Assembly: GCA_028715175.1 (NCBI GenBank)
Contig: JAQUSJ010000001.1
Location: forward strand, 276,550-340,549
DNA: 64,000 nt
From: Candidatus Daviesbacteria bacterium
Lineage (GTDB): Bacteria; Patescibacteriota; Microgenomatia; Daviesbacterales; UBA10151
Direction of reading: 5' to 3'
Shown here: positions 21,831 through 49,111 of the stretch, piece after piece
Position numbering within the stretch: position 1 is the stretch's first letter
How the letters are laid out: each line of letters opens with the position of its first letter
The notes under the pieces: model-generated
Database searches by the model: none
Seen by the model: the letters and a program-made list of their open reading frames with translations, nothing else
What the model was told of the DNA's origin: nothing
Translations under genes and position numbers: made by a program

Positions 21831-21864
21831 ATTTTGTTTGCAAGCTGCGCTTACAAACTTGTTT

Positions 21865-22416
21865 ATGGACCATAAACTTATTAAAGCAACATCAATCCCA
21901 GGACTGTTAGTATTGGAAAGACCAATACTTACGGACGAACGGGGATTTTTTAGAGAAATTTTCCATATTGATGAAATAGAAGAAACTTTGAATATTGAGT
22001 TTAAAGGCTTACAAATGAATCATGCTCATTCTAAACCTTCGGTAATGCGGGGAATTCATGCAGAAAATTGGAATAAGATAATTTATCCGGTTAATGGACA
22101 AGTTTTCGTGGCGATTGTTGATATTAGAGCAGATTCCTCAACTTTTGGTAAGATGGAAACATTTACAATCAACGATCAAAACAGGATTGCCTTATTTGTT
22201 TCCAAAGGTTTGGCTAATTCTTATTGTATTACCGGCAGTACACCAGTGGACTACATCTACCTAGTTGATGCTTATTACGATGGTTCAGATACCAGGGCAA
22301 TTGCCTGGGATGATCCTGATTTAAATATAAATTGGCCGATTAAAAATCCTATTATCTCCGAGAGGGATAAAAATAATCCGACACTGCGGGATCTATTTCC
22401 CGAAAAATTCAAATGA
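21865..22416 (+). CDS. rfbC: dTDP-4-dehydrorhamnose 3,5-epimerase (start chosen at MDHKLIKATS; the ORF track extends to 21790)
   Basis: IPGLLVLERPILTDERGFFREIF and RGIHAENWNKIIYPVNG, as in the RmlC cupin. 183 aa from this start. Confidence 0.8.
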   Translation: MDHKLIKATSIPGLLVLERPILTDERGFFREIFHIDEIEETLNIEFKGLQMNHAHSKPSVMRGIHAENWNKIIYPVNGQVFVAIVDIRADSSTFGKMETFTINDQNRIALFVSKGLANSYCITGSTPVDYIYLVDAYYDGSDTRAIAWDDPDLNINWPIKNPIISERDKNNPTLRDLFPEKFK

Positions 22417-26811: not shown

Positions 26812-28983
26812 ATGAATATAGCCGGACTATCAGTCTTTTTTCCTTGCATTAACGAAGAAGGAAGTATTGAACATATTGTGCGTAAAGCAGAACAGGTCCT
26901 GAAAAAATTAAACCTCAAACACGAAATTATTGTTGTTGACGATGGTTCAACCGACCGGACCGGCCAAATTGCAGATAAAATGGCCCGGGAAAATTCTAAT
27001 ATAAGGGTTATCCATCATCTTAAAAATTTAGGTTATGGAGAAGCCTTAAAATCCGGTTTCTACAGCGCAAAATATGACATTATTGTTTATACCGACGGAG
27101 ACGGTCAGTTTGATTTTTCGGAAGTGGAAAAGTTTTTGGAAAAAATCCGGTACAATGACGCGATTTTCGGGTATAGAATAAAGCGGAAAGACCCGTTTTT
27201 TAGAATACTTTTTAAAAAAGGTTGGAAGCTGTCGCTTTTAACTTTCTTTGGTTTGACTCTAAAAGACGTGGACTGCGGTTTTAAAATGGTTCGAAAAGAA
27301 GTTTTAGAAAAAATACCTCATTTACAATCTTCAAGAGGGGCGATGATAAATGCGGAGCTTGCCATTTTGGTTCAAAAATACGGTTTCAGAATTGCGGAGG
27401 TTGGGGTAAACCATTATCCCAGAATTTCAGGTAAGCCTACAGGAGCAAATTTGAATGTAATTTTCAAGTCCTATATTGATTTATTGCAACTTTGGTGGAA
27501 GTTTAAAGACGCTAAAAGCTTGTTTTTGCTGTTCATCGGGATTTTGATACTTGCGTCTTTTCTGCGTTTTTACAAGCTCGGAGAATATATGACTTTTTTA
27601 GGAGACGAGGGCAGGGATGCCATAGTTATTAAAAATATGCTTATTAATCATCACTTTCCATTGATTGGTCCGCCTACCTCCGTGGGTAATATTTATTTAG
27701 GTCCGCTTTATTATTATATGATGGCTCTCCCTATGCTGATTTTTTCTCTTAGTCCGGTGTCAGCTGCCGGAATGAATGCTTTTTTTGGTGTAATGAGTGT
27801 AATCTTTATTTATTATCTTGGTAAAAGCTGGTTTAACCGGCAGGCGGCTCTCCTGGCAGCCTATTTATATGCCATTTCTCCCGTAACAATTATCTACTCC
27901 AGGTCTTCATGGAACCCTAATCCGGCCCCGTTTTTTGCCCTAAGTTCAATATTTAGTTTGTATAAGCTATTTAAGACAGGTAACTTTTTGTGGCTTATTT
28001 TAACCGGTCTCTCGGTTGGAGCGGCTTTGCAGATGCATTATCTTGCTGTGATTTTAATACCTGTTGTGGTCGTCCTCTGGTTTTATGAAATTTTCAGAAG
28101 GCGTTACAAAAAGTTAAAAATCGAAAAATTGTTTGGTGGAAGTTTATTAGGGATAGCTTCGTTTTTATTTATCATGTCACCCCTTGTTTGGTTCGATCTC
28201 CGGCATAATTTTTTAAACTATAGAGCTATAACAGAACTTTTTAGTTCCGGCAATGCAATTAAGGCCGATCTTGTTGCAAATATTTTAAAGATACCCTCTC
28301 TTTATTCGTACAATTTAATTGGAAGATATATCGGAGGAGAGAATTCTTATCTAACGGTAATTGTATCTTTATTGGTTATTGTCGCACTGGTATATAGATT
28401 TTCGTACTGGCCTAAACTTGCTTTAGCCGTATGGTTGATAGTGGGTCTTCTCGGGCTTACCTTTTATCAACAGAGTATTTATGATCATTATTTGGGGTTT
28501 TTAAATCCTGTTCCGTTTTTGCTTTTAGGGTCCCTAGCTTCAATCCGTATTCCTAAACGGAAGGTGGTAAGATGGTTTATGGTTTCTGTCCTGGTGGTGT
28601 TGACGGTATTTCTAACAATAGTCAACTTTCAAAAAAATCCTCTGCGCAATCCGCCAAATAATCAACTGAAAAGAACTCAAGAAATAGCAAAGTTTATTAT
28701 CAGTCAGGCAAATGGTAAAGATTTTAATTTTGCCTTAATTGCTGAAAGAAATTATGATTCGGCATACCAATTTTATCTTGATATATATGGTCATAAGCCA
28801 AAACAAGTGCCTTTTGATATAACAGAAGAACTATTTGTTGTCTGCGAAGATTCTACATGTGACCCAACTCACAGTGCAAAGTATGAAATTGCCGCCTTTG
28901 GCTGGTCAAAAATTGAATGGATGCAAAATCTTTACGGGGTAAAGATATATAAATTAGTACACAACCCGTCAGGGAAACCATGA
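26812..28983 (+). CDS. Fusion protein: N-terminal GT2 Dpm1-like polyprenyl-phosphate glycosyltransferase + C-terminal ArnT-like GT-C (subfamily A) membrane transferase
   Basis: aa 1-230: LSVFFPCINEEGSIEHIV..VVDDGSTDRT..YTDGDGQFD (GT2). aa ~240-723: LGDEGRDAIVIKNMLINHHFPLIGPPTSVGNIYLGPLYYY.. collinear with 5590-7227 and 9039-10562. 723 aa. Confidence 0.7.
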   Translation: MNIAGLSVFFPCINEEGSIEHIVRKAEQVLKKLNLKHEIIVVDDGSTDRTGQIADKMARENSNIRVIHHLKNLGYGEALKSGFYSAKYDIIVYTDGDGQFDFSEVEKFLEKIRYNDAIFGYRIKRKDPFFRILFKKGWKLSLLTFFGLTLKDVDCGFKMVRKEVLEKIPHLQSSRGAMINAELAILVQKYGFRIAEVGVNHYPRISGKPTGANLNVIFKSYIDLLQLWWKFKDAKSLFLLFIGILILASFLRFYKLGEYMTFLGDEGRDAIVIKNMLINHHFPLIGPPTSVGNIYLGPLYYYMMALPMLIFSLSPVSAAGMNAFFGVMSVIFIYYLGKSWFNRQAALLAAYLYAISPVTIIYSRSSWNPNPAPFFALSSIFSLYKLFKTGNFLWLILTGLSVGAALQMHYLAVILIPVVVVLWFYEIFRRRYKKLKIEKLFGGSLLGIASFLFIMSPLVWFDLRHNFLNYRAITELFSSGNAIKADLVANILKIPSLYSYNLIGRYIGGENSYLTVIVSLLVIVALVYRFSYWPKLALAVWLIVGLLGLTFYQQSIYDHYLGFLNPVPFLLLGSLASIRIPKRKVVRWFMVSVLVVLTVFLTIVNFQKNPLRNPPNNQLKRTQEIAKFIISQANGKDFNFALIAERNYDSAYQFYLDIYGHKPKQVPFDITEELFVVCEDSTCDPTHSAKYEIAAFGWSKIEWMQNLYGVKIYKLVHNPSGKP

Positions 28984-29754: not shown

Positions 29755-31278
29755 GTGGATTTTTTAGTTAAACGTCGCAGAGGAATTTTAATCCTCATTG
29801 CCTTAATTGCTGTGTATTTTATTCTTAGACTGCCGAATTTGACTTTGCAGCCTATCTTTGCAGATGAGGCGATTTATATCAGATGGGCGCAAGTGATGAG
29901 AGCTGAATCAACCCTGCGTTTTCTGCCTTTATCCGATGGGAAAACCCCGCTTTTTATGTGGGCTATGATTCCTCTTTTCAAATTTATCCACGATCCGCTT
30001 CTGGCAGGAAGAGTTCTTTCTGTGATCTCCGGTTTTTTTACTTTGCTTGGGGTATTTTTCCTATCCAGGAAAATCTATAATACACGGACCGCATTTTGGG
30101 CAAGTTTATTGTATGTGATTACTCCTTATACTGTATTTTTTGACCGGATGGCTCTGGTTGATTCAATGCTGGCTGCTTTTACTGTCTGGTCGGTTTATTT
30201 TGCCGTCTGGCTGGTAAGTAGTTTGAGATTAGATATTGCCATGATCTTAGGTTATTTGTTGGGAGGTGGTATCTTAACAAAAACACCGGGTATGTTTAAT
30301 CTGCTTGTATTGCCTATAACAATAATAGGATTTATTAGAAGAAAGGGAGGAAAAAATGCGCTGATTAAGTTAATAGCCTTATGGGGTGTTGCGATCGGAA
30401 TTGCGCTGGCTATGTATAACATGTTGCGACTCGGGCCAAATTTTCAAATGTTATCTTCAAGGAATATGGATTATATTTTTTCTCCAATGGAGTTAATCGG
30501 CAGACCCTTGGACCCGTTCATCCCCCATTTCAATGATATCGCCGATTGGTTCCCCAAACTTCTAACCTGGCCAATTTTATTTTGTGTTGTGATGGGAATG
30601 ATTTACATAATATACATGATATGGCAACAAATGTTCCGCGGGCCGTCTTTGTTGGGAGGGATAATTTTGCTTTGGGCGCTCATTCCGTTGCTTTTGAATA
30701 TGGCATTTTTGCGAACTTTTACTGCCCGTTATCTTTTTCCTTCGATTCCATTATTTTTGGTGATAGCCGGATTTGGAGCAACAAAAATACTACCGAGGCT
30801 TGCATATATAAGACGCTTCCCTATTCTTCTGATGTTGATAGTTCTTTTGCCTCTTCCATTATATTTTGATTTTTTCTTATTAACTTCGCCCGGGAAGGTG
30901 CCGCTTCCCAAGGAGGAGAGAAAGGGGTATTTTGAAGATTGGACTTCCGGGTATGGATTTTCCGATATCGCAAAGTTTCTTTTGGAGAAAAGTAGAGATA
31001 AAAAGGTTGTTCTTGGAACAGCCGGTTCTTTCGGAACATTGCCTGACGGGATTCAAATTTATCTTGATAAATCAAAAATATCAATAGTAACCAGCAGCGC
31101 TACTATTTCGGCGCAGGTCAGAAATGCCGCAAAAGATAACCTTACCTACTTTATTGGAAACAAACGGGATTTGGAAGGCAGCGCCAGCGATATTGTGCTG
31201 ATAAAAGAATACCCAAAATTGAAGCCATTAGATAATTCCTTGCAAGATGCTACAGTTTTATATCAAGTGCTGCCTTAA
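29755..31278 (+). CDS. ArnT-like GT-C glycosyltransferase (GT83-type motif)
   Basis: First extracytoplasmic loop PIFADEAIYIRWAQVMRAE matches the ArnT 'DExRYxExxxxM' motif. RVLSVISGFFTLLGVFFL and ITPYTVFFDRM follow the second ArnT motif. 507 aa, polytopic. Confidence 0.7.
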   Translation: MDFLVKRRRGILILIALIAVYFILRLPNLTLQPIFADEAIYIRWAQVMRAESTLRFLPLSDGKTPLFMWAMIPLFKFIHDPLLAGRVLSVISGFFTLLGVFFLSRKIYNTRTAFWASLLYVITPYTVFFDRMALVDSMLAAFTVWSVYFAVWLVSSLRLDIAMILGYLLGGGILTKTPGMFNLLVLPITIIGFIRRKGGKNALIKLIALWGVAIGIALAMYNMLRLGPNFQMLSSRNMDYIFSPMELIGRPLDPFIPHFNDIADWFPKLLTWPILFCVVMGMIYIIYMIWQQMFRGPSLLGGIILLWALIPLLLNMAFLRTFTARYLFPSIPLFLVIAGFGATKILPRLAYIRRFPILLMLIVLLPLPLYFDFFLLTSPGKVPLPKEERKGYFEDWTSGYGFSDIAKFLLEKSRDKKVVLGTAGSFGTLPDGIQIYLDKSKISIVTSSATISAQVRNAAKDNLTYFIGNKRDLEGSASDIVLIKEYPKLKPLDNSLQDATVLYQVLP

Positions 31279-31290: not shown

Positions 31291-32952
31291 ATGAAAAAAG
31301 CCTTAGTGATTTTTTTCTTTTTAAGTTTTATAACCCTTCCGACTATTTTGCCCTTTTTGTCACTCAAATTTTTTTATACCCAGGATTATATTTTTATAGC
31401 CAGACTGCAACAGATGAGTTCAGCGCTATTTTCCGGCCAATTTCCTGTCAGATGGGTGCCGGATTTAAGATACGGCGAACCTCTTTTTAATTTTTATGCG
31501 CCCCTGCCCTATTACTTGGGGGCAATAATTAAACTGACAGGATTAAATTTTATCTGGGTTGCAAAAATATTATTTATATCCAGCAGTATTTTATCGGCTG
31601 TGACAATGTATATCTTATGTCGCAAACTCTTTAATCGCAAAGCTGCAATCTTAGCGGTTTTTCTTTATACTTATGCTCCTTACAGGGCAGTTGATATTTA
31701 TGTCCGGGGAGCATTATCAGAAGCTTGGGCTTTTGTATTTTTCCCGCTGATTTTTTATGCCTCTCTGCTTTTATCTGAAAAATCGAGCATAAAGAGGATT
31801 TTACTTCTTGTTTTTTCTTTAGCAGGATTATTTTTAACTCATAATGTTGCAACTTTAATGTTTTTACCGTCCCTTTTTTTGTGGTGGATATATCTTGTAT
31901 TAACAAAAAGAAACTGGAAATTAATTTTCCCTAATTTAACCGCTTTAGGTTTAAGTTTAGGCTTAGCCGCATTTTTCCTGCTTCCGGCTTTATTAGAACG
32001 GCAATTTATTCAAACAAAATATTTGATAGTCGGTTATTTTGATTTTCGTGCTCATTTTGTGGCTTTCTCTCAATTTTTTTCAACATTTTGGGGATACGGA
32101 TCCTCGCTTTGGGGACGAGATGATGGTTTATCATTCCAGATAGGACTTATTCACTGGGCCGTTCTTGCATTGGCTTTATTTTTAGGACTCTTCCTTATAA
32201 GGAATAAGCACAATTTCGTTGCCAATAAAAAGTTTTTAATATTTTTGTTATTTCTGGGAGTTAATTTTTTACTCTCTTTATTTTTGCAACATAACAAATC
32301 TGCATTCATCTGGGAAGCAATTCCTGCTATGGCTTTTATTCAATTCCCCTGGAGATTTTTAGCAATCTCAATTTTCTTCGTTGCAATAATTGGCGCAGCA
32401 TTAACAAGTTATTTTCAGGATAAGTTTAAACTGGTATATTTTATTTTGATCATTGCCGTAGTTGTTGCAAACTTTGGATATTTTAGGCCTAAGGAATATG
32501 TTGATGATAGTTTCTTTGATAAATTTTTAAATATAGAGACTATGCGGAAAGGGGTAGATTTGACAAAGGACTATCTACCGATTTGGGTTGCTACTACTGA
32601 TGGTGAAAGGTTCAATACTCCACAAGCAGAAAAGGGTGAAATTACAGTTTCTTCCTTTAAACAAAGTTCAATAAGATTTAATTTTGATGCTAAAGTTTCC
32701 TCAAACGCTTTGATTGACATACCTATTACATATTTCCCCGGTTGGCAAGTTCAAGCAAATAACCAGTTAATCTCTCAAAGCTCTCCTTCGAAAATGGGGC
32801 TTATCAGGTTCGAACTTCCAAAAGGGAGCTATGCAATTAATATTGAGTTCAAAGATACTCCCATAAGAACTATAGGAAATATTATTTCATTTGTTTCGGC
32901 AGTAGCGATTTCGATGTTGTTTCTTTTTAGAAAGAAATATTTAAATGTATAA
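31291..32952 (+). CDS. YfhO-like GT-C family membrane glycosyltransferase
   Basis: FPVRWVPDLRYGEPLFNFYAPLPYY loop; ~13 TM helices; C-terminal extracytoplasmic domain (PITYFPGWQVQANNQ). Paralog of 32945-34654 and 55325-57007. Confidence 0.55.
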   Translation: MKKALVIFFFLSFITLPTILPFLSLKFFYTQDYIFIARLQQMSSALFSGQFPVRWVPDLRYGEPLFNFYAPLPYYLGAIIKLTGLNFIWVAKILFISSSILSAVTMYILCRKLFNRKAAILAVFLYTYAPYRAVDIYVRGALSEAWAFVFFPLIFYASLLLSEKSSIKRILLLVFSLAGLFLTHNVATLMFLPSLFLWWIYLVLTKRNWKLIFPNLTALGLSLGLAAFFLLPALLERQFIQTKYLIVGYFDFRAHFVAFSQFFSTFWGYGSSLWGRDDGLSFQIGLIHWAVLALALFLGLFLIRNKHNFVANKKFLIFLLFLGVNFLLSLFLQHNKSAFIWEAIPAMAFIQFPWRFLAISIFFVAIIGAALTSYFQDKFKLVYFILIIAVVVANFGYFRPKEYVDDSFFDKFLNIETMRKGVDLTKDYLPIWVATTDGERFNTPQAEKGEITVSSFKQSSIRFNFDAKVSSNALIDIPITYFPGWQVQANNQLISQSSPSKMGLIRFELPKGSYAINIEFKDTPIRTIGNIISFVSAVAISMLFLFRKKYLNV

Positions 32953-34654
32953 AATTATTGGTTCACATAAAGAATTTATCATTGGATTGCTGCTGACTTT
33001 GTCTTTGCTCTGGCCGCTTTTCACGGCTCCTTACTTTACCCATCATGATGACGTACAAGTGATTAGAATTTATGAGATGGATAAATGCATTAAAGATCAT
33101 CAAATACCATGCCGGTGGGTGCCGGATTTGGGCGGTTTATACGGCTATCCGATTTTTAACTATTATGCACCCCTGCCTTATTACTTTGGTGAATTGGTTT
33201 ATTTGTTCACTAACAATCTGTTAATTTCGGCAAAGGCAATGTTTATTATCAGTTTTCTGGGATCTTATGTTTTTATGTATCTTTTAGCATCAAAGCTGTG
33301 GGGTAAAAAAGGAGGTTCTCTAGCTGCTGTTTTTTTTGAGTTTGCACCTTACCATGCGCTTGATTTTTACGTCAGGGGAGCGATGGGTGAGTTATGGGGA
33401 TTAATGCTTTTTCCTGCTATCTTTTGGGCTTTGATAAGATTGGAAGAGAAAATAAATATTCTCCGTCTTTTACTGTTGGCAATATCCATTGCTGCGCTCG
33501 TAGTCTCACACAATCTTTCAGCCTTAATCTTTTTGCCACTGGTCTTAATTTGGGCGGCTATAATATTTTTTAGAAGAAAAAATGCCAAATTTTTATGGTT
33601 CTCCTTAGGAGGAATAATTCTTGCTGTGGCTTTATCTTCATTTTATTTATTTCCGGCCTTGTTTGAAAAGAATTTTGTTCATCTTGGAACTACAATTGGA
33701 GGATATTTTTCATATACGGAACATTTTAAGGGATTTAGAAAATTATTCTTGGATAGGTCTTGGGGGTATGATTCATCAATCAGGGAAGTTCCGGGAGGAG
33801 AGAAAGATGGACTTTCTTATCAGATAGGATGGGTACATCTTGCGGGATGGATTTTATCATTGGTTGCGGCAAAGATATTATGGAAAAAGAATAAAAATTT
33901 GAGCATTATAATCGGATTTTCTTCATTTGTGATTTTACTTTCAATTTTTATGATCAATCCAAGATCGGAATTTGTCTGGAAGCTGATTGATCCGTTAAAA
34001 TACCTGCAATTTCCCTGGCGATTTTTGCTGCTTGTGGTATTTTTTATATCATTTGTTTCAGGTAGTATTTTCCTGGCTGATTTCAAGCGCAAAAATGTTT
34101 TGTGGGCATTTTTAATTATTGCGGTTGTTGTTTTTAATTTTTCCTATTTTAGGCCGGCAAAATTTATTAAAACAAATGACGAAAAACGCTTAAGCGGTAA
34201 AGATTGGGATACACAGATAAAGCGTTCAATTTTTGATTATTTGCCTATTTATGCAAAAGAACCGCCGGCAGAACTTGCTACTTCAAGGTACCAAATTTTA
34301 ACGGGCGACAGTCGGATTTTTGATTTTCAAGAGGGGACAAATTGGATTACTTTTAAAACGCAAACGCAGACACACACAATTATCCGCTTATCGCAGTATT
34401 ATTTTCCCGATTGGAAGGTATTTGTAGATCAAAAAGAAGTAAAAGTTGAATATAAAAACAACAGTTTAGGTTTAATGACTATTATCTTGGGTAAAGGCTC
34501 TCATGAAATTACAGCAAGGCTTTATGACACTCAGATTAGATGTCTTTCAAATTTTATCACTTTAATAGGGTTTGCAGTTAGTGCAATATTATTCTTAATT
34601 TCTTTCCAAAGAGTCCGTCGATGGATGTCATATTACAGGAAAAGAATGAATTAA
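32945..34654 (+). CDS. YfhO-like GT-C family membrane glycosyltransferase (paralog)
   Basis: IPCRWVPDLGGLYGYPIFNYYAPLPYYFGE and C-terminal YYFPDWKVFVDQKEV, collinear with 31291-32952. 8-nt start/stop overlap. Confidence 0.55.
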   Translation: MYKIIGSHKEFIIGLLLTLSLLWPLFTAPYFTHHDDVQVIRIYEMDKCIKDHQIPCRWVPDLGGLYGYPIFNYYAPLPYYFGELVYLFTNNLLISAKAMFIISFLGSYVFMYLLASKLWGKKGGSLAAVFFEFAPYHALDFYVRGAMGELWGLMLFPAIFWALIRLEEKINILRLLLLAISIAALVVSHNLSALIFLPLVLIWAAIIFFRRKNAKFLWFSLGGIILAVALSSFYLFPALFEKNFVHLGTTIGGYFSYTEHFKGFRKLFLDRSWGYDSSIREVPGGEKDGLSYQIGWVHLAGWILSLVAAKILWKKNKNLSIIIGFSSFVILLSIFMINPRSEFVWKLIDPLKYLQFPWRFLLLVVFFISFVSGSIFLADFKRKNVLWAFLIIAVVVFNFSYFRPAKFIKTNDEKRLSGKDWDTQIKRSIFDYLPIYAKEPPAELATSRYQILTGDSRIFDFQEGTNWITFKTQTQTHTIIRLSQYYFPDWKVFVDQKEVKVEYKNNSLGLMTIILGKGSHEITARLYDTQIRCLSNFITLIGFAVSAILFLISFQRVRRWMSYYRKRMN

Positions 34655-36135
34655 AGACTATGGATGAAAGCGTTGAACAGATTGATCCGACTAAAGAGCT
34701 GACTACGGAAATTATTAAAACGCGAGCTGTTAAAGGCGCCGCAATTTTGACTGGAAGAATGGTTCTAATGCAGGGAATATCCTTTTTTTCAATGGCTCTT
34801 TTGACAGCCTTTCTTTCCCCGGCAGAATTCGGGGTTTATTTTGTCGTGTCGGCAGTTAAGAATTTCCTGGCTTATTTTGGCGATATTGGTTTTGCTCCGG
34901 CTTTAATCCAGAAACAAGAGAAGCCAACCGATCTTGAATTAAAAACTATATTTACTGCCCAACAGCTGCTTATTTTAATATTATTGGGAATAGGTTTTCT
35001 GCTTACTTTTTTAATACAAAATATTTATAATTTAAATCAGGCAGCAATTTATTTATTTTGGGCACTTCTTTTTTCTTTGTTTTTTTCATCGTTAAAAACG
35101 ATTCCTACTGTTTTACTGGAGAGAAAGTTAGAATTTAATAAATGGGTAATTCCGCAAATCATTGAAAATATAATTTTTAATTTAACAGCCGTAACTTTGG
35201 CCTGGAAAGGATTCGGAGTCACAAGCTATACTGTTGCCGTACTTTTATCCGGTTTCATAGGTCTTTTCGTTACATATATAGTTCAGCCCTGGCTTCCCGG
35301 AATTGCATTTTCGGTTAAATCTTTTAAGTCAATATTAAAGTTTGGCATCCCCTATCAAGCAAATACACTTCTTGCGATGGTGAAAGATGACGGTATGACG
35401 CTTTTTTTAGGAGGGGTATTAGGTCCTTCCGGTGTCGGATTTTTGGGGTGGGCTCAGAAATGGGCTTATGCGCCACTCCGGTTTTTTATGGATCAGGTAA
35501 TCAAGGTGACTTTTCCGGCTTTTTCAAGATTGCAGGATAACAGAAAAGACTTGTCAGACTTAGTTTCGAAGTCTATTTTTTTCATCTGTATTTTGGTTTT
35601 TCCATCTCTCGTGATGCTGGTTCTGGTGACACCCAGTTTAGTGCAGGTAATACCAAAGTATATTAAATGGAGTCCTGCCGTTTTTGCGCTTTCGGTTTTA
35701 ACAATAAATTCCGGTTTGGCAGCAATAACCACTCCATTGACGAATACTCTGAATGCTATCGGCAAAATAACTCTGACTTTTAAGTTGATGATTATGTGGA
35801 CTATATTAACTTGGATTTTTGTTCCAGCGCTTGCTGTGCTTTATGGGGTTAATGGCGCAGCCGTAGGGTTTGCTATTGTCGGATTAAGCTCTGTTATAGC
35901 TTTATATCTGGTTTCAAAACATGTTGATATAAACTATTTGCAAAGTGTTGGAAAACCGGTTCTCGCGTCAATTTTCATGGGAATTTGCGTATTTATTATC
36001 AGTAGTCTTTTTTCCGTGTCTTGGCAGCAGATAATAGGTATGGTTGTTGCAGGTTTGATTTCCTATTCTTTGACTATTTTTATGCTTGAACCAAAGCTGC
36101 CGCTTTTAATTAAAAATCAATTCAGAAGAAAATAA
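34621..36135 (+). CDS. Wzx-like oligosaccharide flippase (MOP/polysaccharide biosynthesis protein family)
   Basis: 504 aa, ~14 TM helices. N-terminal KGAAILTGRMVLMQGISFFSMALLTAFLSPAEFGVYFVV pattern of Wzx/PST flippases. Confidence 0.65.
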   Translation: MDVILQEKNELKTMDESVEQIDPTKELTTEIIKTRAVKGAAILTGRMVLMQGISFFSMALLTAFLSPAEFGVYFVVSAVKNFLAYFGDIGFAPALIQKQEKPTDLELKTIFTAQQLLILILLGIGFLLTFLIQNIYNLNQAAIYLFWALLFSLFFSSLKTIPTVLLERKLEFNKWVIPQIIENIIFNLTAVTLAWKGFGVTSYTVAVLLSGFIGLFVTYIVQPWLPGIAFSVKSFKSILKFGIPYQANTLLAMVKDDGMTLFLGGVLGPSGVGFLGWAQKWAYAPLRFFMDQVIKVTFPAFSRLQDNRKDLSDLVSKSIFFICILVFPSLVMLVLVTPSLVQVIPKYIKWSPAVFALSVLTINSGLAAITTPLTNTLNAIGKITLTFKLMIMWTILTWIFVPALAVLYGVNGAAVGFAIVGLSSVIALYLVSKHVDINYLQSVGKPVLASIFMGICVFIISSLFSVSWQQIIGMVVAGLISYSLTIFMLEPKLPLLIKNQFRRK

Positions 36136-39100
36136 TGAAAAAAATTATTTTTTTATTGCTATCTTTTTTTTCCATAATTTTTTCCGCACAAACTGTTGCA
36201 GCAAGTAATTCATTCATTTCAATCGTAAATCCTGTTAGAGGAAACGACTTTTGGGATTTAAAGGATCAAAGCGTAGAAACCGCAGTTTTGGGTCAAATTG
36301 AGATATTAAACAAATCTAATTTACCAGCGACCTGGCTGCTGCGATTTGATGTGCTTAATAATGAAAATATTATTAATCAGTTAAAAGATAGGACGCTTGA
36401 TGAAAAAGGATTATTCCTGGAAGTGACTCAAGCCTGGACAGCTCAAGCAAAGATTCAATATCGTAAGTTAGATATTTGGCATGCAGCCGGCAGCGCTTTT
36501 TTGACCGGTTACGAAAGGGAACAAAGAGGAAAACTGATCGATGTTGCTTTTGAAAAATTTAAAAATATCTTTGGTCAATATCCTGTCTCAGTTGGCGCAT
36601 GGTGGATTGATGCTTATTCGCTGGATTATATGCAAAAAAAATACGACATCACCTCAGCGTTAATTGTGGCCGATCAATACTCAACAGATAATTATCAAAT
36701 TTGGGGTCAATATTTTGGGACTCCTTATTATCCAGGCAAGAATAACGCGCTTCATCCTGCCGGTAACTTAGAAAACAAACTTGATGTTGTAATGATGCAG
36801 TGGGCCACAAGAGATCCGGTGAATGGTTATGGAAACGGGGTAACGGAAAGTACTTTTTCCGTACAGGCCAATGATTATATTGATTATCACGATTTAGACA
36901 CGAAGTATTTTTCTTCCTTAATTGACATATACACAAAACAAAAATTTAACCAGTTTGCTCACATGGTAGTTGGTTTAGAAAATTCTTATTCCTGGAGAAA
37001 ATATGCAGATGAATATAAAAAACAAATTGAAGTATTGATTGAAAAAAGAGATTCCAATCAGCTTTCGGTTATCACGATGAAAGATTTTGCCGGTTGGTAT
37101 AAAAAAACTTTCCCAAAACTTTCTCCTGAACAATTAATTGTTGCAGATGACCCGCTGGGGAGTTTTAGAAAAGCTGTTTGGTTTATGAACCCGTATTACA
37201 GAGCGGGATGGTTTTTAAATTCTGATGGAAGCGTTTTTAGAGAGATTAGACAATATGTTGATGGAGAAGAGGAATTATGCTTTAGGACTAGATGTGACAA
37301 TGTTAACTTTGCAACTTCTGCTACCAGAGTTTTGGACGACGTCAGCTTTAGCAGCAAATGGGTGATAGATGAAGGGAAAATTAGTAATTCTAAAGTAGAA
37401 AGAAAAGGGGATGATTTTTTAATCAGTTATAAAAATGAAGCGGGAAATGTAAGACATATAGAATTTTTGCCCCGTGATATAAGTTTAGACGGAAATATTT
37501 TTTCTATTGATGCGGCCATATTAAATGCAATCAAAACAGGGAGTACAGTAACTAAGAATGCCGCAGCGGGGGGACAAACGCTTGATTGGTCCCTTTTTTC
37601 CGTCATATTAAAGCTTGCGGAATTTTTACTATTTTTATTGCTTGTCACTTTTATTCCGGGATTTGTTTTAAGTCGTAACTTTTTGAAAAAGGATTCCCTT
37701 TTTCTGCGGTTATTTATATCCGGATCAGTCGGGTTTGTCGTGCTTACTTTGCTTTTCTATATAACTAGTTTGTTGAAAATTAGGCCATTGGTTTTTGCTT
37801 ATATTTTAATAAGCCTGATTTTGTATGTCCGCTTTAAACCTCCTTTTGTCATCCTGAGAGAAACGAAGGATCTAATCATTAGATTTTTCCCCAGTCAAAG
37901 GCGGCCTCAGAATGACAGGGTTGGGTGGTTTAATTTAATATTGATTGCAATTATTTTGGCCGGAACCATATTCCAAGCAATGCCTACTTTTAAAAGCGGT
38001 TTAAATTTTTCCTATGGTATCGGACTTTGGGGACCTAATACTCATGATGGTGTTTGGCATATAGCTTTAATAAATCAGTTGGTAAAGTCTGTTCCGCCTG
38101 AAAACCCTGTCTATTCCGGTGTTACCTTAAAGAATTATCACTTCTTTTATGATCTTTTAGTGGCTGTTACAAATTACTTATCCGGACTACCTGTTTCCGA
38201 TTTAGTCTTTAGATTTTATCCGGTAATTTTCTCTTTGATGTTGGGATTGGGTTCTTATTATCTTATCATGAAACTTTTTAAAAATAGAATGGAGGAGATG
38301 CAGGTAAAAGTTGCCGCAGTATTCAGCTTATATTTTATTTATTTTGCCGGCAGTTTTGGATGGATTGTGGAATTTTTGCGGGAGGGTCACTTTGGTGGGG
38401 AATCGGCTTTTTGGGCCAATCAGGCAGTTTCTTTTAATTTGAATCCGCCGTTTGCGGTTTCTTTGGTTATTCTTATTTCCCTGTTTCATATCTTGTTTTC
38501 AAATACCAAAGGAATAGTGCCGAATGCCGTTGCGATCATTATGGTTGGTACTCTTGCCAGTTTTAAATCATACACCGGAATTTTAGTATTAGGAGCTTTG
38601 TGTTTTGTAGCAGCGGTAAGGATTTTAAGAAATAAAGATTTTACTTGTTTTTGGACTGTGCTTTTTTCCATTTTGGTCACTGCCTTATTATTTTTGTCTA
38701 ATTTTCAGGCGAGTTCCGCGCTGATTATTTTTGTGCCGTTTTGGTTTATTCATTCAATGGTTGATTCTCCGGATCGGGTTGGTTGGGTTAGGTTATCTTT
38801 AGCCAGGACAACCTCTCAAGCGCTGGAACAGTGGCCGAAATTTATTATAGCGGAAACATTAAGCCTCCTGCTTTTTATATTTGGGAATTTAGGATTGCGG
38901 TTTTTAAGTTTAGGGTATCTGCTGAAGATAAAAGAAATTTTTAAAAATGACACTTTACTATTTATTTCTACAACGGCAATTTTGTCAAGCGTAATACCCA
39001 TTCTTTTTATACAGTCAGGTAATCCTTGGAATACAATTCAATTTTTCTACCCCTTTTTGTATATCAGCGCGCTTTTTAGCGGACCGGTTATTGCTTTTTT

Positions 39101-39623
39101 GGTTTTTAGACTGAATAAAATACTGGTTTTTAGTTTTGTATGCCTGGTTCTTATTATTGCGCCGATTAACTCACTTGTTACAGCCGGCGGGTATTTGAGT
39201 AAAACACCACATGCTTTTATTTCTTCAAAAGAACTTGCGGGTTTGCAATTTTTAGCTAGTGAGCCTAAGGGAACAGTGTTAACTTATCCTTATGACGGGA
39301 AATTAAAAACTAAAGTTGCGGAACCTTGGCCGATCCTCGTTTATGATAGTACGGCTTATGTTTCAGCTTTTTCTAAAAAAGCGGGCTATTTGGAAGATGA
39401 ACCGCAGAATCAAATCTTGCTGACAGATTATAAAAAGAGACTGGTTGCTTCAAAGGATTTTTTCTTGAAACCTGTTTCCGAAGGATCAAAATTTCTGCGC
39501 GATAATAATATAAAATATATTTACATACCAAAAATATACGACATAAGACTTGATGAGGGCGCCCAAGAGGTAAAAAATATTTTCGAAAATGAAGAAATAA
39601 TTATTTATCAAGTAAATCAATGA
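36135..39623 (+). CDS. Giant bipartite protein: signal peptide + ~490-aa secreted domain of unknown function fused to a ~650-aa GT-C-like polytopic membrane domain with C-terminal extracytoplasmic domain
   Basis: MKKIIFLLLSFFSIIFSAQTVAA signal. No TM helix until ~aa 500, then >14 helices. Loop GLWGPNTHDGVWHIALINQL. Stop overlaps the next start (ATGA). Confidence 0.5.
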   Translation: MKKIIFLLLSFFSIIFSAQTVAASNSFISIVNPVRGNDFWDLKDQSVETAVLGQIEILNKSNLPATWLLRFDVLNNENIINQLKDRTLDEKGLFLEVTQAWTAQAKIQYRKLDIWHAAGSAFLTGYEREQRGKLIDVAFEKFKNIFGQYPVSVGAWWIDAYSLDYMQKKYDITSALIVADQYSTDNYQIWGQYFGTPYYPGKNNALHPAGNLENKLDVVMMQWATRDPVNGYGNGVTESTFSVQANDYIDYHDLDTKYFSSLIDIYTKQKFNQFAHMVVGLENSYSWRKYADEYKKQIEVLIEKRDSNQLSVITMKDFAGWYKKTFPKLSPEQLIVADDPLGSFRKAVWFMNPYYRAGWFLNSDGSVFREIRQYVDGEEELCFRTRCDNVNFATSATRVLDDVSFSSKWVIDEGKISNSKVERKGDDFLISYKNEAGNVRHIEFLPRDISLDGNIFSIDAAILNAIKTGSTVTKNAAAGGQTLDWSLFSVILKLAEFLLFLLLVTFIPGFVLSRNFLKKDSLFLRLFISGSVGFVVLTLLFYITSLLKIRPLVFAYILISLILYVRFKPPFVILRETKDLIIRFFPSQRRPQNDRVGWFNLILIAIILAGTIFQAMPTFKSGLNFSYGIGLWGPNTHDGVWHIALINQLVKSVPPENPVYSGVTLKNYHFFYDLLVAVTNYLSGLPVSDLVFRFYPVIFSLMLGLGSYYLIMKLFKNRMEEMQVKVAAVFSLYFIYFAGSFGWIVEFLREGHFGGESAFWANQAVSFNLNPPFAVSLVILISLFHILFSNTKGIVPNAVAIIMVGTLASFKSYTGILVLGALCFVAAVRILRNKDFTCFWTVLFSILVTALLFLSNFQASSALIIFVPFWFIHSMVDSPDRVGWVRLSLARTTSQALEQWPKFIIAETLSLLLFIFGNLGLRFLSLGYLLKIKEIFKNDTLLFISTTAILSSVIPILFIQSGNPWNTIQFFYPFLYISALFSGPVIAFLVFRLNKILVFSFVCLVLIIAPINSLVTAGGYLSKTPHAFISSKELAGLQFLASEPKGTVLTYPYDGKLKTKVAEPWPILVYDSTAYVSAFSKKAGYLEDEPQNQILLTDYKKRLVASKDFFLKPVSEGSKFLRDNNIKYIYIPKIYDIRLDEGAQEVKNIFENEEIIIYQVNQ

Positions 39624-41248
39624 AACCTAAATTAATATTGTTTTGTCTTGTAATAGTTGGATTACTCTTAAGAGTAATATTCATTAACAATAGCCCGCCC
39701 TCATTATATGGAGACGAGTTAACCATAACTCTGGATGCTTATTCCTTATTAAAAACAGGTCAAGATCAGTTAGGAAACTTACTGCCGCTAACCTTTTCTA
39801 TGGGGGCCGGCCGGCCAGCCGGTTATGTGTATGGGTCAATACCGTTTGTGGCTATCTTTGGTTCGTCTGCGTTAGGTATAAGAGCTCTTTCGATTTTGTC
39901 AGGCATAGGGATAATTATTCTTTTATATTATATAGGTAGGAAACTATTTTCTGGGAAGGTTGGGATAGCAGCTGCTTTTATTGGATCTGTTTCTCCATGG
40001 GATATATCTTTAAGCAGAGGCGGTTTTGAGGCTCATTTTGCATTGTTTCTTGTACTACTGGGAACTTATCTTTTTATTCAAGCAAAGAATACACCCGTAT
40101 TTTATATAATTTCTGCATTGAGTTTTGGGTTAACACTGCATACTTATCCAACATATAAAGTAAGTCTACTGCTATTTTTACCATTACTTCTGTGGTATCA
40201 AGGTGACCTAAAAAGGGTTTTAAACAATTATAGAAAATATTTTTTAACTGGAGTTTGTATATTTATATTCTTCAGTGGTTTATCTTTAATCCAAACTTTT
40301 ACAGGAGGTTCGGAAGCAAGATTTTTAGGTATAAATATATTTGCACAGGATAAATTAAAAGATACAATCGTGCAAAAGATAAACTTCGAAAGACAAATAA
40401 CACAGTTACCTCAGTCTATCTCTAAATATTTTCATAACAAACCTATTGAGTATGCAAAAGTATTCAGTGAAAATTATCTGCAGAATTTTTCAATTGATTT
40501 TCTAATTCTACACGGTGATCGAAACCCAAGACACAATATGGCAACAATGGGGGAGATATATTTTATAGAATTAGTATTAATTTTTATTGGGTTTATTGCT
40601 TCCTGGTACAAAGAAAAAAGGACAAAAATATTTTTGTTTTCCTGGTTATTTCTAGCTCCGATTCCTGCAGCAATTATTGATACTCCGCATGCGCTAAGAA
40701 GTGCTTTTATGTTCCCTCCTCTTGTACTTTTTTCCGCGGTAGGGCTTATAACAGTTTTTAATCACAAAAATAAGTTATTTTCAGTTTTAATTCTAATGAT
40801 TTTTATTTTTCAATTCATATTCTTTGTCCAAAAACTATATTTCCTGGCTCCAAAAGAATACAGCAACTTTTGGTCATATTCTGCAAAACTTGCCTCACAA
40901 ATTGCTAAAAATAATAAAGACAAATTTACTTATGTGATTTTATCTGACAGGATCGATAATATAGAGTTTGCTTATCCGGTTTATGCAAAAATTGATCCCA
41001 ATATAATAATTTCTCAAAATCAAAATAAAACTTTACTCAATGGCAGCAAATTTAAAAAATTTGACAACATTTATATTGGATATATTCCTGAAAGCCGGGT
41101 AGAGAAATTTATTGATTCACTGGAGAGGTCTATGTTGTATATTAGTTCGGCAGGCGATAAGGAATTTCTTAGTAACCCGGAATTAATTGATGGCCTGGAC
41201 GGTCAGAAGGCGCTAGTTTTAGAAAAAAGAGCTTTAAGTAATGAATAA
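39620..41248 (+). CDS. GT-C glycosyltransferase, PMT/ArnT-like subfamily B paralog
   Basis: LYGDELTITLDAYSLLKTGQDQLGNLLPLTF loop after TM1; IRALSILSG..SPWDISLSRGGFEA; mid-protein FLILHGDRNPRHNMATMGEIYF motif. Confidence 0.65.
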   Translation: MKPKLILFCLVIVGLLLRVIFINNSPPSLYGDELTITLDAYSLLKTGQDQLGNLLPLTFSMGAGRPAGYVYGSIPFVAIFGSSALGIRALSILSGIGIIILLYYIGRKLFSGKVGIAAAFIGSVSPWDISLSRGGFEAHFALFLVLLGTYLFIQAKNTPVFYIISALSFGLTLHTYPTYKVSLLLFLPLLLWYQGDLKRVLNNYRKYFLTGVCIFIFFSGLSLIQTFTGGSEARFLGINIFAQDKLKDTIVQKINFERQITQLPQSISKYFHNKPIEYAKVFSENYLQNFSIDFLILHGDRNPRHNMATMGEIYFIELVLIFIGFIASWYKEKRTKIFLFSWLFLAPIPAAIIDTPHALRSAFMFPPLVLFSAVGLITVFNHKNKLFSVLILMIFIFQFIFFVQKLYFLAPKEYSNFWSYSAKLASQIAKNNKDKFTYVILSDRIDNIEFAYPVYAKIDPNIIISQNQNKTLLNGSKFKKFDNIYIGYIPESRVEKFIDSLERSMLYISSAGDKEFLSNPELIDGLDGQKALVLEKRALSNE

Positions 41249-42173
41249 AATAAAATATTTACTGCTTATTTTAATCTCAGTTACTGCTTTATCTTTTAGA
41301 TTTTATATTAATTATTTCATACCCGTCAACCAACAGATTAATTTATTATTTATACTTTTAGGTCTGTTTAATTTAATATTATTATTTTGTATAATTCAAA
41401 GGCTAGCCAATTATAAAATTGGGTTGTTGGCAGCTCTACTATACGCAATATCCCCTTGGACAGCATACCTTGAATTGGTATCCAGTCCATATATCTTTTT
41501 ACTTTCTTCTATATTATTTCTATATCTGGGAATTCAAATATTTAATGTCAGCAAAGGAATTTTCTTGCTATTGATCATTGCGATCGGAGGTTTTTTTCTA
41601 TACAGATATAATCAAATCACTGTTTTTTCCAATATAGGTTTAATCAATGATGTAAATAGTTTTAGAGGTGAAACGAATCAAACTTTTCTCTCTCCTTTAG
41701 GAAAGATTATCGAAAACCGTTATATATATTTAAGCGAGCATTTAACATCTAATATCCTTAAACAATTTACTCCGGCAACTTATTTTACAAATCAGGTTCG
41801 ATTACTGGGGTTTTCTAATTCTTCGCCAATATATTTAGGCTTTATAACTCCTTTCTTATTTGGTGTTTTGATATCGGTAAGATTAATACCAAGGAAGAGA
41901 ATTTCAGAAATAATAGCCGGAGCTTTATTTATATTGCCTTCAATACTATCTAAAGACTCGCCTGATTTATCCCGCTTAATCTTAATTTCTCCAATAATTT
42001 TTTTTGTAATAAGTATAGGTTTATATGAATTTATTCTAAATTACAGGAAAAAAGTATTCCTTTTTTTGCTGTTTCTTACGGTGTTTATGGTGGTATTGCA
42101 GTTTCTGATAACTATCTCCGATATAGCGGTTAGAGAACCTGTAAGATTACAGATGTTTTTGGATCAAAAATAA
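41241..42173 (+). CDS. N-terminally truncated GT-C-like membrane protein (lacks the DE catalytic loop)
   Basis: 310 aa. Goes from TM1 directly into LAALLYAISPWTAYLE (the second-motif region of subfamily B). ATYFTNQVRLLGFSNSSPIYLGFITPFLFG resembles the mid-protein module. Confidence 0.45.
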   Translation: MNKIKYLLLILISVTALSFRFYINYFIPVNQQINLLFILLGLFNLILLFCIIQRLANYKIGLLAALLYAISPWTAYLELVSSPYIFLLSSILFLYLGIQIFNVSKGIFLLLIIAIGGFFLYRYNQITVFSNIGLINDVNSFRGETNQTFLSPLGKIIENRYIYLSEHLTSNILKQFTPATYFTNQVRLLGFSNSSPIYLGFITPFLFGVLISVRLIPRKRISEIIAGALFILPSILSKDSPDLSRLILISPIIFFVISIGLYEFILNYRKKVFLFLLFLTVFMVVLQFLITISDIAVREPVRLQMFLDQK

Positions 42174-42174: not shown

Positions 42175-43833
42175 ATGAAAAGATTTAATCAGAGAAGAGG
42201 TAAACATATTTTTGTTTTCCTGCTATCTCTTACAATAGTAGGAGGTTTTCTAAGGTTTTATCAGATTACTAAGAATCCAATCAGTCTTTCTATTGACGAA
42301 GTGGCATTCGCGTATAATGCTTTTTCTATTTTGAAAACTGGCCGCGATGAATATGGTAAATTTCTTCCTTTATCTTTTAAATCAACCGGAGATTATAAGA
42401 ATCCGGTTCCTATATACACGATGGTTCCGTCAATTGCCATATTTGGGCTAAACGAATTTAGTATTAGGCTGCCTACAGCGCTGATTGCTACTTTAAGCAT
42501 CCCTGTTTTTTTTCTTTTATTTCTGGAGATTACAGGATCTCAAGTAATATCACTTTCCGCTGTCTTGCTTTTGACAATTTCCCCCTGGCATATTTATTAT
42601 TCACGGTATGTTTCTGATCATTTAATAGCGGCAACACTAGTGGTTTTGGGGGTATTATCTTTTTTAAGAATGCTAAAAACAGGCAGATGGTTTTGGAGTA
42701 TCGGTTCTGCGATTTTCCTTATTTTATCAATGTATACTTATTATGCCGAACGGTTATTTATTCCTCTTTTTTTCTTAGCGCTATTTATACTAAAAAAACG
42801 GGATTTAGTTGAAAGATTAAAACAAGTAAAATTATTTATAGCAGTTTGCGCAGTTTTGCTCTTTCCGCTTATTTTTTCCACTTTTTTTGGACCTGATAGG
42901 ATAAGAGCGCAAATGACATGGATTGGTAATGATGTTGAGTTTGTAAGGAATGTAGCAGTAAAACCTTTGAAAAATATCCCTTTTTTGACTTCAGATAATT
43001 TATTACTTGTTTTTTTTGGAGCGAGAAAATATTTGAATTATTTTGATCCTGGATTCCTTTTCTATAGCGGTTTAAATATGACTAAAAGCGGTAGCTACGG
43101 ACTAGGCGTTTTGTATTTATTTGAAACCCCCTTTTTTATTTTAGGAATTATTACATTGATCAGGAAAAAGATAAAAAACAAAGGCTTAATTATTGCATGG
43201 ATTTTGGTAGGTTTGATACCTGCGTCATTGACAAATAACGAACAGCATCCCGGACGCACCTTTATTATTCTTCCTATGATCATACTGATTTCTGCAATAG
43301 GAGTAGTTGAGCTTTTCAGGTTAATAAGAACTTATTTAAATCAGTATTTAAGGAATATAATTTTTGTAGCTTTTTCAATCATTATTATATGGAATTTAAT
43401 CCAAGCATTTTTAATCTATAGCGTGCATTTCCCCCGTCAAAAAGGAGAAAATTTTATGGAAGGCACTAAGGAAACGGTCGAATTTGCGCTGGTAAATAAG
43501 AATAAGTACAAAGAGATAGTTTTTGATCCGTACAGGGGGATAGAGGCTCCGTACATAGTTAGCATCCCGCATATGTATATTCTATTTTACTCGCAATATA
43601 ACCCCGCAATTTATCAGCAGGAAGAAAAAATACGGCCGGACGGATCATACGGATTTGATAAGTTCACCATCAGGAGAATTGACTGGAGGACAGATAGGTT
43701 AAAAACAGATACTTTATTTATTGGTAGTCCTTGGAGTTTGCCTGAAAAAGATATTAAAAACCAGGAAATTTTAAAGAGGGTCTATCTTTCCGGCGGACAA
43801 TTAGCTTTTTTGATTGTTTCTCCAGTGCAGTAA
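42175..43833 (+). CDS. GT-C glycosyltransferase, PMT/ArnT-like subfamily B paralog
   Basis: SIDEVAFAYNAFSILKTGRDEYGKFLPLSFKSTGDYKNPVPIY; IRLPTALIATL; TISPWHIYYSRYVSDH. 552 aa. Confidence 0.7.
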   Translation: MKRFNQRRGKHIFVFLLSLTIVGGFLRFYQITKNPISLSIDEVAFAYNAFSILKTGRDEYGKFLPLSFKSTGDYKNPVPIYTMVPSIAIFGLNEFSIRLPTALIATLSIPVFFLLFLEITGSQVISLSAVLLLTISPWHIYYSRYVSDHLIAATLVVLGVLSFLRMLKTGRWFWSIGSAIFLILSMYTYYAERLFIPLFFLALFILKKRDLVERLKQVKLFIAVCAVLLFPLIFSTFFGPDRIRAQMTWIGNDVEFVRNVAVKPLKNIPFLTSDNLLLVFFGARKYLNYFDPGFLFYSGLNMTKSGSYGLGVLYLFETPFFILGIITLIRKKIKNKGLIIAWILVGLIPASLTNNEQHPGRTFIILPMIILISAIGVVELFRLIRTYLNQYLRNIIFVAFSIIIIWNLIQAFLIYSVHFPRQKGENFMEGTKETVEFALVNKNKYKEIVFDPYRGIEAPYIVSIPHMYILFYSQYNPAIYQQEEKIRPDGSYGFDKFTIRRIDWRTDRLKTDTLFIGSPWSLPEKDIKNQEILKRVYLSGGQLAFLIVSPVQ

Positions 43834-49020: not shown

Positions 49021-49111
49021 TATAAATAGATTCATACTTATCCATATTTTAGTAATATTATTTAATCCCTGGTGGTGGATAATTATTCAGAAAAATCTTT
49101 GGATTGGTTTA

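Follow-up and report, generated by a model that had tools for sequence, protein, structure and literature searches.

The gene considered here lies in a stretch of 64,000 nucleotides from a Candidatus Daviesbacteria bacterium (contig JAQUSJ010000001.1, positions 276,550 to 340,549 of the forward strand). The whole stretch is called the window, and positions are counted from its first letter. The gene begins with ATG, runs from 36135 to 39623 on the forward strand, and encodes a protein of 1162 amino acids (aa) that joins a secreted, enzyme-like N-terminal module to a membrane module resembling the GT-C glycosyltransferases. An earlier note, made from the sequence alone, had given the same coordinates and length. 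The protein is 100% identical to 'hypothetical protein PHE48_01770' of a Candidatus Daviesbacteria metagenome-assembled genome (MAG), and its full-length homologues are 55-81% identical to it. On the 5' side, the stop codon of a Wzx-type flippase gene (MOP/Polysacc_synt_3; 34621..36135, forward strand; Pfam PF13440, E 1e-49), a conserved partner, overlaps the start codon of the fusion gene within TAATG. On the 3' side, the start of a PMT_2 gene of the GT-C type overlaps its stop within ATGA. Given these two overlaps, the open reading frame (ORF) belongs to an operon of translationally coupled genes and does not result from reading through two genes. It contains no internal stop codon.

The protein starts with MKKIIFLLLSFFSIIFSAQTVAA followed by S, which has KK in the n-region, then a hydrophobic core and finally a V-A-A site, as expected from the cleavable-looking signal peptide of the earlier note. 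Residues 1-23 (36135..36203; like all features of the protein given below, on the forward strand) would be the signal peptide, within a hydrophobic segment at residues 3-24, and cleavage probably follows V-A-A. A Kyte-Doolittle scan finds no hydrophobic segment from residue 25 to about 485 and a dense hydrophobic block from 485 to 1022, which bears out the claim that some 490 N-terminal residues have no transmembrane helix. The soluble part is indeed rich in W, Y and D, which make up 3.0, 5.2 and 8.0% of it, against 1.3, 3.3 and 5.8% in 16 soluble proteins of the window. The figure of more than 14 transmembrane helices was about right, if slightly high, since the AlphaFold2 (AF2) model has 14, three in a linker and 11 in a core. 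Both helix parity and the positive-inside rule put the C-terminal domain of about 140 aa on the extracytoplasmic side, where the earlier note also had it.

When 1.84 billion cluster representatives were searched exhaustively by phmmer with the fusion protein, 1902 relatives came up at E<=1e-3, 668 of them at E<=1e-30. They come in three architectures: fusions of about 1000-1170 aa, proteins of about 560 aa that correspond to residues ~600-1160, and proteins of 500-700 aa that correspond to residues 1-~450. Besides the fusions there are therefore many proteins with only the N-module (aa 1-450) or only the C-module (aa 600-1160), in line with the description of the protein as chimeric. Among species-representative genomes a scan located 236 loci, of which the best 80 were retrieved and all their ORFs scanned with hidden Markov models of the modules. 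Nearly all of the 80 come from MAGs of Daviesbacteria, Microgenomates or Patescibacteria. The complete fusion is present as a single ORF of 1110-1200 aa in 61 loci, representing 61 other species-level genomes, and the window has one copy of each module, both inside the fusion ORF. In view of the 61 single-ORF loci and the separate stand-alone halves, the chimera is genuine, and it is in the fused form that the protein predominates and is conserved.

Some relatives depart from the common plan. One of 1639 aa (P0123) carries about 490 additional N-terminal residues in front of the full fusion, and another of 1067 aa (P0257) has its N-module at residues 471-809. Dozens of loci come from 'binchicken' third-party annotation (TPA) MAGs (L003, L006, L007, L011, L012 and others), with 60-70% identity and matching synteny. 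Those records are titled 'uncultured Gammaproteobacteria bacterium', a taxonomy that seems to be a placeholder or wrong.

The N-module is predicted to consist of two parts. Residues 25-330 (36207..37124) form a seven-stranded beta/alpha barrel like that of DUF3863, as judged by AF2, Foldseek, profile and conservation, with strands at residues 26-34, 66-70, 90-94, 152-155, 174-178, 219-223 and 275-279. Residues 333-457 (37131..37505) form a beta-sandwich with an invariant pair of cysteines, Cys382 and Cys387, assigned by DSSP of the model and by a second aligned stretch to the structure 3lm3. The model, built on a 52-sequence alignment, has a predicted local distance difference test (pLDDT) score of 81.4 and a predicted TM-score (pTM) of 0.86. 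The earlier note had suggested structure prediction and a Foldseek search for this region, and these gave a confident fold with a clear top match. Nothing was found of the disorder, membrane embedding or division into two genes that it had allowed for.

That top match in the Protein Data Bank (PDB) is 3lm3 (E 3.5e-14, TM-score 0.55/0.59), over about 408 columns that take in both barrel and beta-sandwich. 3lm3 is BDI_3119 of Parabacteroides distasonis, a 'putative glycoside hydrolase/deacetylase' and the structure underlying Pfam DUF3863 (PF12979). It is followed by a divergent CE4-like group that includes HP0310 (9e-9), 3rxz, ArnD (8t0j; 1e-6), PuuE and 1z7a; CE4-like deacetylases occupy ranks 2-13, with TM-scores to the target of 0.52-0.67. 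Classical CE4 enzymes, GH57 and GH38 stand lower in the list, the last two at about 1e-4 and TM-scores of 0.2-0.3. The earlier note had suggested for this domain either a glycan-processing enzyme (a hydrolase or a deacetylase) or a module that recognises the substrate, and a barrel plus beta-sandwich with such relatives agrees with that.

A profile of 38 diverse N-modules finds 3lm3 as its sole match in the PDB (E 6.9e-8), and 21 of 38 stand-alone relatives touch PF12979, with a best E of 3.6e-5. From the shared fold, the profile and the PF12979 matches, the N-module is a divergent sister of DUF3863 within the superfamily of seven-stranded glycoside-hydrolase/deacetylase barrels. PF12979 itself gives no match at E<=1 to the query or to seven close homologues that carry faint precomputed PF12979 flags, and both phmmer and the close-family profile A1 find only chance matches in the PDB (LMW phosphatase and PIWI, E>0.2). 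An NCBIfam scan of 38 N-module and 30 C-module relatives likewise produced only chance matches. A bona fide DUF3863 gene was encountered on an unrelated 440-kb contig (L081, 3001-3983), split into pieces of 132 and 197 aa. Its second piece is also tagged DUF3864, which indicates that one protein comprises both, DUF3863 as the barrel and DUF3864 as the domain behind it, as in 3lm3.

What might the barrel do? Conservation was assessed over 111 N-modules, 61 fused and 50 stand-alone. Nine polar residues are invariant in all of them (R35, E96, R131, D180, Q181, D185, R226, D247 and E282), and two more are nearly so, D159 in 110 and D227 in 109. Conserved aromatic residues are Y126, W156, Y187, W190, W223 and W349. 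In the AF2 model the conserved polar residues lie 1-3 residues past strands b1-b7, at the mouth of the barrel, and the C-terminal ends of the strands are the catalytic face of beta/alpha barrels. The motifs at the strand ends are NPVR, RFD, LEV, WWID, ADQ, WATRD and LEN.

These are not the motifs of CE4 enzymes, whose hallmark is an Asp-His-His metal triad with a catalytic Asp/His, set in TFDD, H(S/T)xxH, RxPY and LxH. No histidine is universally conserved among the 111 N-modules, H116 being Ala in 10 of the 50 stand-alone sequences and H252 often absent, which makes a canonical CE4 metal site unlikely. The CE4 profile PF01522 (Polysacc_deac_1) matches neither the query nor any of 38 relatives. 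With the Asp-His-His site not conserved, a classical deacetylase becomes the least likely of the functions suggested earlier, and a canonical CE4 deacetylase was rejected as a candidate on that ground. The site also appears to be specific to the N-module family, since DUF3863 has neither D180 nor W-W-x-D159; this comparison of residues covers the b4-b6 stretch and the junction of barrel and sandwich, and a search with a 75-aa segment of 3lm3 gave only fragments of DUF3863 proteins. From the model and the conservation, the N-module is probably a catalytic, hydrolase-type domain. A glycosidase/transglycosylase or a deacylase that needs no metal is more likely than an enzyme of the classical CE4 kind.

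The membrane module (aa 487-1162) is modelled with a pLDDT of 82.9 and a pTM of 0.87. It opens with three linker helices at aa 487-584 (37593..37886; helices H8-34, H43-67 and H73-105 of the model), supported by hydropathy and by the positive-inside rule. There follows a core of 11 transmembrane helices with the GT-C fold at aa 591-1018 (37905..39188), recognised through Foldseek, hhalign and the stand-alone homologues of about 560 aa. All matches in the PDB at E<=1e-3 are to GT-C enzymes: STT3 in several oligosaccharyltransferase complexes (6e-7 to 5e-6), PglB (1e-5), AftA (4e-4) and ArnT (1e-3), each with probability 1.0. Weaker fold matches are Pmt4, PIG-M, AftB and EmbA/B, and transporters appear only at E>0.2 and probability <0.1. 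When its profile is aligned by hhalign with that of ten PMT_2 paralogues from the window, the probability is 87% (E 3.9e-6) over helices TM2-TM7 of the core (aa 648-855). The suggestion of a GT-C-like transferase is thus upheld by a confident model, by significant structural matches to that class exclusively, and by a weak profile link to the PMT_2 paralogues.

No curated model describes this module. Pfam and NCBIfam have none for the C-module of the query or for 29 of 30 stand-alone relatives; the remaining one matches GT87 at 0.0017. The models PMT_2 (PF13231), PMT and ArnT find nothing at E<=10 in the query or its parts, and nothing at E<=0.1 in any of the 30 stand-alone relatives. Together with the 87% link to PMT_2, this makes the membrane module a remote GT-C relative, in a family of its own.

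The predicted topology is consistent. Lysine and arginine make up 9 of 32 residues in the loops predicted to be inside and 9 of 152 in those predicted to be outside. The three linker helices make an odd number of crossings, and therefore an N-module on the outside can be joined to a core whose first helix runs from inside to outside. GT-C enzymes are polytopic proteins of 8-16 transmembrane helices with a catalytic carboxylate in external loop 1. By the helix parity of the model, the outside loops of the fusion contain many invariant residues: W632, G633, D638, H642, Y668 and H669 in loop 622-686; E756, W760 and N770 in loop 746-770; D880 and R881 in loop 857-899; and Q960, W965, N966 and Q969 in loop 958-970. 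Among divergent homologues, D638, H642, K811, D880 and R922 are invariant. The motif of loop 1, W632-G-P-N-T-H637-D638-G-V-W641-H642 (38028..38060; alignments A1 and A4), contains the acidic residue of most interest: all 52 close and all 30 divergent homologues have D638, and this, with its position in the model, makes it a candidate for the catalytic base or metal ligand. A canonical oligosaccharyltransferase was considered and rejected: the fusion protein has no WWDYG-type motif (regular expression W[WY]D[YFW]G), and its C-terminal domain is only about 140 aa.

That C-terminal domain (aa 1022-1162; 39198..39620) is extracytoplasmic and family-specific, shared with stand-alone N-module paralogues. 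Its profile matches no other ORF in the window, the 15 PMT_2 genes included, and the idea that it is generic to the GT-C paralogues of the locus was rejected for this reason. The paralogues that do share it, about 675 aa long and lacking a C-module, lie elsewhere in the genomes, often at a distance of about 23 kb on the contig that carries the fusion gene. They consist of a signal peptide, the N-module, two transmembrane helices and a soluble domain of about 130 aa homologous to the C-terminal domain of the fusion; examples are L069 9932-11959, L071 9995-12025, L072 9992-12016, L075 9965-12022, L076 1741-3765, L077 4691-6787 and L080 4009-6090. The paralogue keeps the N-module and the C-terminal domain and has no core, and so it amounts to the fusion minus its 11-helix GT-C core. 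That the two are retained together argues that both are outside and functionally linked. The paralogue has a conserved C-x-x-C motif, which is absent from the fusion.

The C-module too has stand-alone copies. In about 35 of the 61 genomes, such a gene (about 660-690 aa, the three extra N-terminal helices included) lies directly downstream of the fusion, for example at L003 13363-15348, L008 13363-15390, L011 13405-15381 and L021 13435-15465. In the window, a PMT_2 gene occupies this position.

By its gene content, the window is largely an envelope-glycan locus. The neighbourhood of the fusion gene is well conserved among the 61 loci: Wzx is upstream on the same strand in 59 and abuts the fusion in 58, two PTPS_related genes are found in 52, an upstream PMT_2 gene (507 aa) in 45, and two downstream GT2 genes in 39. 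The window also encodes cytoplasmic enzymes of the GT2 and GT4 kinds, among them two GT4s and several short GT2s, as well as a GT2-GtrA enzyme and a protein that joins GT2 to PMT_2. The GT2-PMT_2 fusion (723 aa; 26812-28983, forward strand; GT2 at aa 7-168, PMT_2 at aa 298-451) is upstream of the gene studied here in 20 of the 61 loci. Its GT2 half is likely a polyprenyl-phosphate-sugar synthase, in which case one chain would both make and consume a lipid-linked donor. Directly upstream of the glycosyltransferase array lie RmlA, RmlB, RmlC and RmlD, a complete pathway to dTDP-L-rhamnose (19738-23321, forward strand), followed by a 4,6-dehydratase-like sugar gene (23371-24387); their presence beside the array suggests a wall polysaccharide that contains rhamnose.

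Counting the fusion, 15 PMT_2 genes and three PTPS_related genes, there are 19 GT-C-type genes in the 64 kb, between 1664 and 61847. The array is mostly co-directional, with overlapping genes, and pairwise identity is only 16-20%. Parts of it lie at 29755-31278, 39620-41248, 42175-43833, 47386-54607 and 57025-61847, and the PTPS_related genes at 31291-34654 and 55325-57007 (minus strand). Two short ORFs on the forward strand, 41241-42173 (310 aa) and 46668-47384 (238 aa), match the PMT_2 profile in part, as would be expected of truncated GT-C paralogues or of the remnants of genes. Three further genes, all on the minus strand, match no family: a polytopic protein of 545 aa (5590-7227), possibly a divergent GT-C; a protein of 419 aa with terminal hydrophobic segments (12521-13780); and a polytopic protein of 389 aa with about 10 hydrophobic segments (25591-26760), which has no Pfam match and a homologue in 6 of 61 loci, and which is possibly a Wzy-like polymerase. 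A division hydrolase module of the FtsE-FtsX-PcsB type (ABC ATPase, FtsX permease and an M23 peptidase with a PcsB coiled coil; 13942-16685, minus strand) adjoins the glycan locus. Among the 49 ORFs of the window there is no initiating phosphoglycosyl transferase, Bac_transf, MraY-type protein, Wzy_C or recognisable Wzy or WaaL, any of which may lie outside it.

I propose that the fusion is a bifunctional extracytoplasmic enzyme of cell-envelope polysaccharide assembly. The adjacent Wzx would flip a sugar or oligosaccharide linked to polyprenyl-(pyro)phosphate, and the GT-C module would take the flipped donor and pass its glycan to an acceptor in the envelope, either the growing wall polysaccharide or a protein, with D638 in loop 1 as the catalytic base or as a ligand of the metal. 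The N-module tethered to it, an enzyme of the hydrolase type, would trim, transglycosylate or de-acylate the same glycan. Its site would be built from the carboxylates E96, D159, D180, D185, D227, D247 and E282 and the arginines R35, R131 and R226, not from the His-His-Asp of CE4, and it would cooperate with the C-terminal domain, which accompanies it in the core-less paralogue too. There are precedents by logic, not by homology: the synthase-hydrolase pairs of exopolysaccharide systems, ArnD with ArnT, and the acceptor-binding outside domains of Emb and AftD. I would give the general statement a probability of about 0.6, and any specific chemistry far less.

Several observations weigh against it. 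Neither the fusion protein nor any of three sub-ranges matches Pfam or NCBIfam at E<=10, and the structural matches of the membrane module to GT-C enzymes have modest TM-scores, 0.39-0.50. The greedy alignment by hhalign is unreliable around H637-D638, so that its register with the DE motif of PMT_2 is not fixed. The nearest structural relative of the N-module, 3lm3, is functionally uncharacterised and gives no mechanism. Nor can an active site be transferred from it by homology, as DUF3863 has Ser at the position of D180 and lacks W156-W157-x-D159. The barrel is structurally closer to CE4-like deacetylases than to GH57 or GH38, and hydrolase chemistry other than that of a glycosidase is therefore possible. 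Finally, the locus contains polyprenyl-phosphate-sugar synthases of the GT2-GtrA type, while the adjacency of Wzx points to a donor linked through pyrophosphate.

How might these facts be explained otherwise? One could suppose that the long ORF merely reflects an error of assembly or gene calling that merged two genes, and in a few loci (L046, L048 and L056) the halves are indeed separate, adjacent ORFs. Those cases are on short or fragmented contigs, and their pieces resemble frameshifts. An unbroken frame in the window, the same single ORF in 61 independent genomes, and a linker with the odd number of helices that the topology of a real fusion requires leave this explanation a negligible chance, and it was rejected. 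A better candidate is an N-module without catalysis, a pseudo-enzyme or carbohydrate-binding scaffold that would recognise the acceptor glycan or hold it in place for the GT-C module, in the manner of the CBM-like soluble domains of EmbA/B/C and AftD. It matches no curated enzyme family, its nearest relative differs at D159 and D180, it is rich in W and Y as binding sites are, and the CE4 superfamily is known to include pseudo-enzymes, BA3943 being among the fold matches. Set against this are about 10 invariant charged residues, kept over 111 sequences of 30-50% identity and all on the catalytic face of the barrel. Both the degree and the pattern of this conservation favour an active site over a binding surface, and I regard a purely binding role as unlikely. 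Less likely still is a metal-dependent CE4/NodB de-N- or de-O-acetylase, which would make the fusion an ArnD and ArnT in one chain, de-acylation followed by transfer. Fold matches 2-13 are all CE4-like, and a fusion would be plausible for two enzymes that act, as ArnD and ArnT do, in one pathway. What makes it improbable is the variability of H116 and H252, the strand-end motifs of the wrong kind and the failure of Polysacc_deac_1 in 38 relatives; moreover the N-module is secreted, whereas ArnD works on the cytoplasmic face.

A variant of the proposal itself concerns the membrane module, which may be a Wzy-like polymerase, or a ligase or oligosaccharyltransferase, working en bloc on repeat units linked to undecaprenyl pyrophosphate, with an N-module that would cleave or measure the chain. 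MOP/Wzx flippases move pyrophosphate-linked glycans, and the linkage to Wzx (abutting in 58 of 61 loci), together with best structural matches to the oligosaccharyltransferases STT3 and PglB, makes such a role plausible. It would also suit a conserved locus core without recognisable Wzy or WaaL, and the established habit of exopolysaccharide systems to pair a synthase with a hydrolase. The objections are that WWDYG is missing and the C-terminal domain small, that the TM-scores to AftA and ArnT equal those to oligosaccharyltransferases, that the 64 kb of the window show no initiating phosphoglycosyl transferase, and that the 389-aa protein at 25591-26760 could be the Wzy of this genome. In view of the GT2-GtrA genes of the locus, the donor may also be a monosaccharide on a monophosphate. 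I consider the variant possible, at well under even odds.

A bolder version of the proposal goes further, and I offer it as somewhat more doubtful again. According to this version, the N-module and C-terminal domain together are an undescribed extracytoplasmic glycan-processing enzyme, a sister family of DUF3863 whose active site of carboxylates and arginines is peculiar to it, and that exists in two forms. In one it is anchored by two transmembrane helices; in the other a whole GT-C core of an uncatalogued family has been inserted between its halves. The second form would couple, in one polypeptide, the transfer of lipid-linked glycan (as polymerase or ligase for units flipped by Wzx) to the processing of the same polymer by hydrolysis or transglycosylation, and would thereby stand in for the Wzy or ligase missing from the reduced genomes of the candidate phyla radiation (CPR).

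CPR/Patescibacteria are uncultured, tiny and episymbiotic, and very little is known of their surface chemistry, though it is needed for attachment to the host. If the proposal is true, the fusion represents a new GT-C family and provides the first functional context for domains like DUF3863, the processing of envelope glycans beside a transferase of lipid-linked sugars. It would be a "Rosetta-stone" link between activities normally encoded by separate genes. It would also offer concrete residues to assay (D638; E96, D180 and E282) and a soluble domain of 460 aa that can be expressed. A search of the literature (DUF3863, 3LM3, BDI_3119, Daviesbacteria/Patescibacteria GT-C, deacetylase fusion) found no description of the fusion protein. 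The novelty lies in how the domains are combined, in a GT-C family that no curated model covers, in a sister family of DUF3863 that has an active-site signature of its own, and in the paralogue that lacks the core. Both folds, GT-C enzymes with outside accessory domains, and synthase-hydrolase pairs were already known, and no new principle is involved.

Comparison with known systems shows where the fusion stands. With the GT-C enzymes (STT3/PglB of GT66, AftA of GT85, ArnT of GT83, PMT/PMT_2 of the GT39 kind) it shares conserved outside loops, an acidic residue in loop 1 and an external C-terminal domain. It differs from them in having H-D in loop 1 in place of D-E or DxD, three extra N-terminal transmembrane helices and an enzyme-like N-domain of 460 aa, and from the 15 PMT_2 proteins of the window in its C-terminal domain. 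EmbA/B/C and AftD resemble it in tethering a GT-C core to soluble domains on the outside, which in their case handle the glycan acceptor. Those accessory domains, however, are C-terminal beta-sandwiches like carbohydrate-binding modules, not an N-terminal barrel of hydrolase/deacetylase fold with a conserved pocket.

The relatives of the N-module are likewise instructive. DUF3863/3lm3 has in common with it the motif P-[YF]-Y-P-S, Q181 and D185, but DUF3863 proteins are soluble, about 430-450 aa long, and neither tethered to the membrane nor fused to a GT-C. The CE4-like group (HP0310 PgdA, ArnD, PuuE allantoinase, 1z7a and 3rxz; E 9e-9 to 1e-5) belongs to the same superfamily of seven-stranded barrels; the N-module adds a beta-sandwich and lacks the metal triad. 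ArnD and ArnT provide the precedent for a deacylase and a GT-C in one pathway. GH57 and GH38 are of the same barrel superfamily and also have a beta-rich domain after the barrel. GH57 has a conserved Glu, the nucleophile and the acid/base at b3, b4 and b7, and the acidic residues E96 (b3), D159 (b4) and E282 (b7) of the N-module may correspond to them. Apart from this possible likeness, the TM-scores are low, there is no Pfam match, and the residues are swapped, the N-module having Asp at b4 and Glu at b7.

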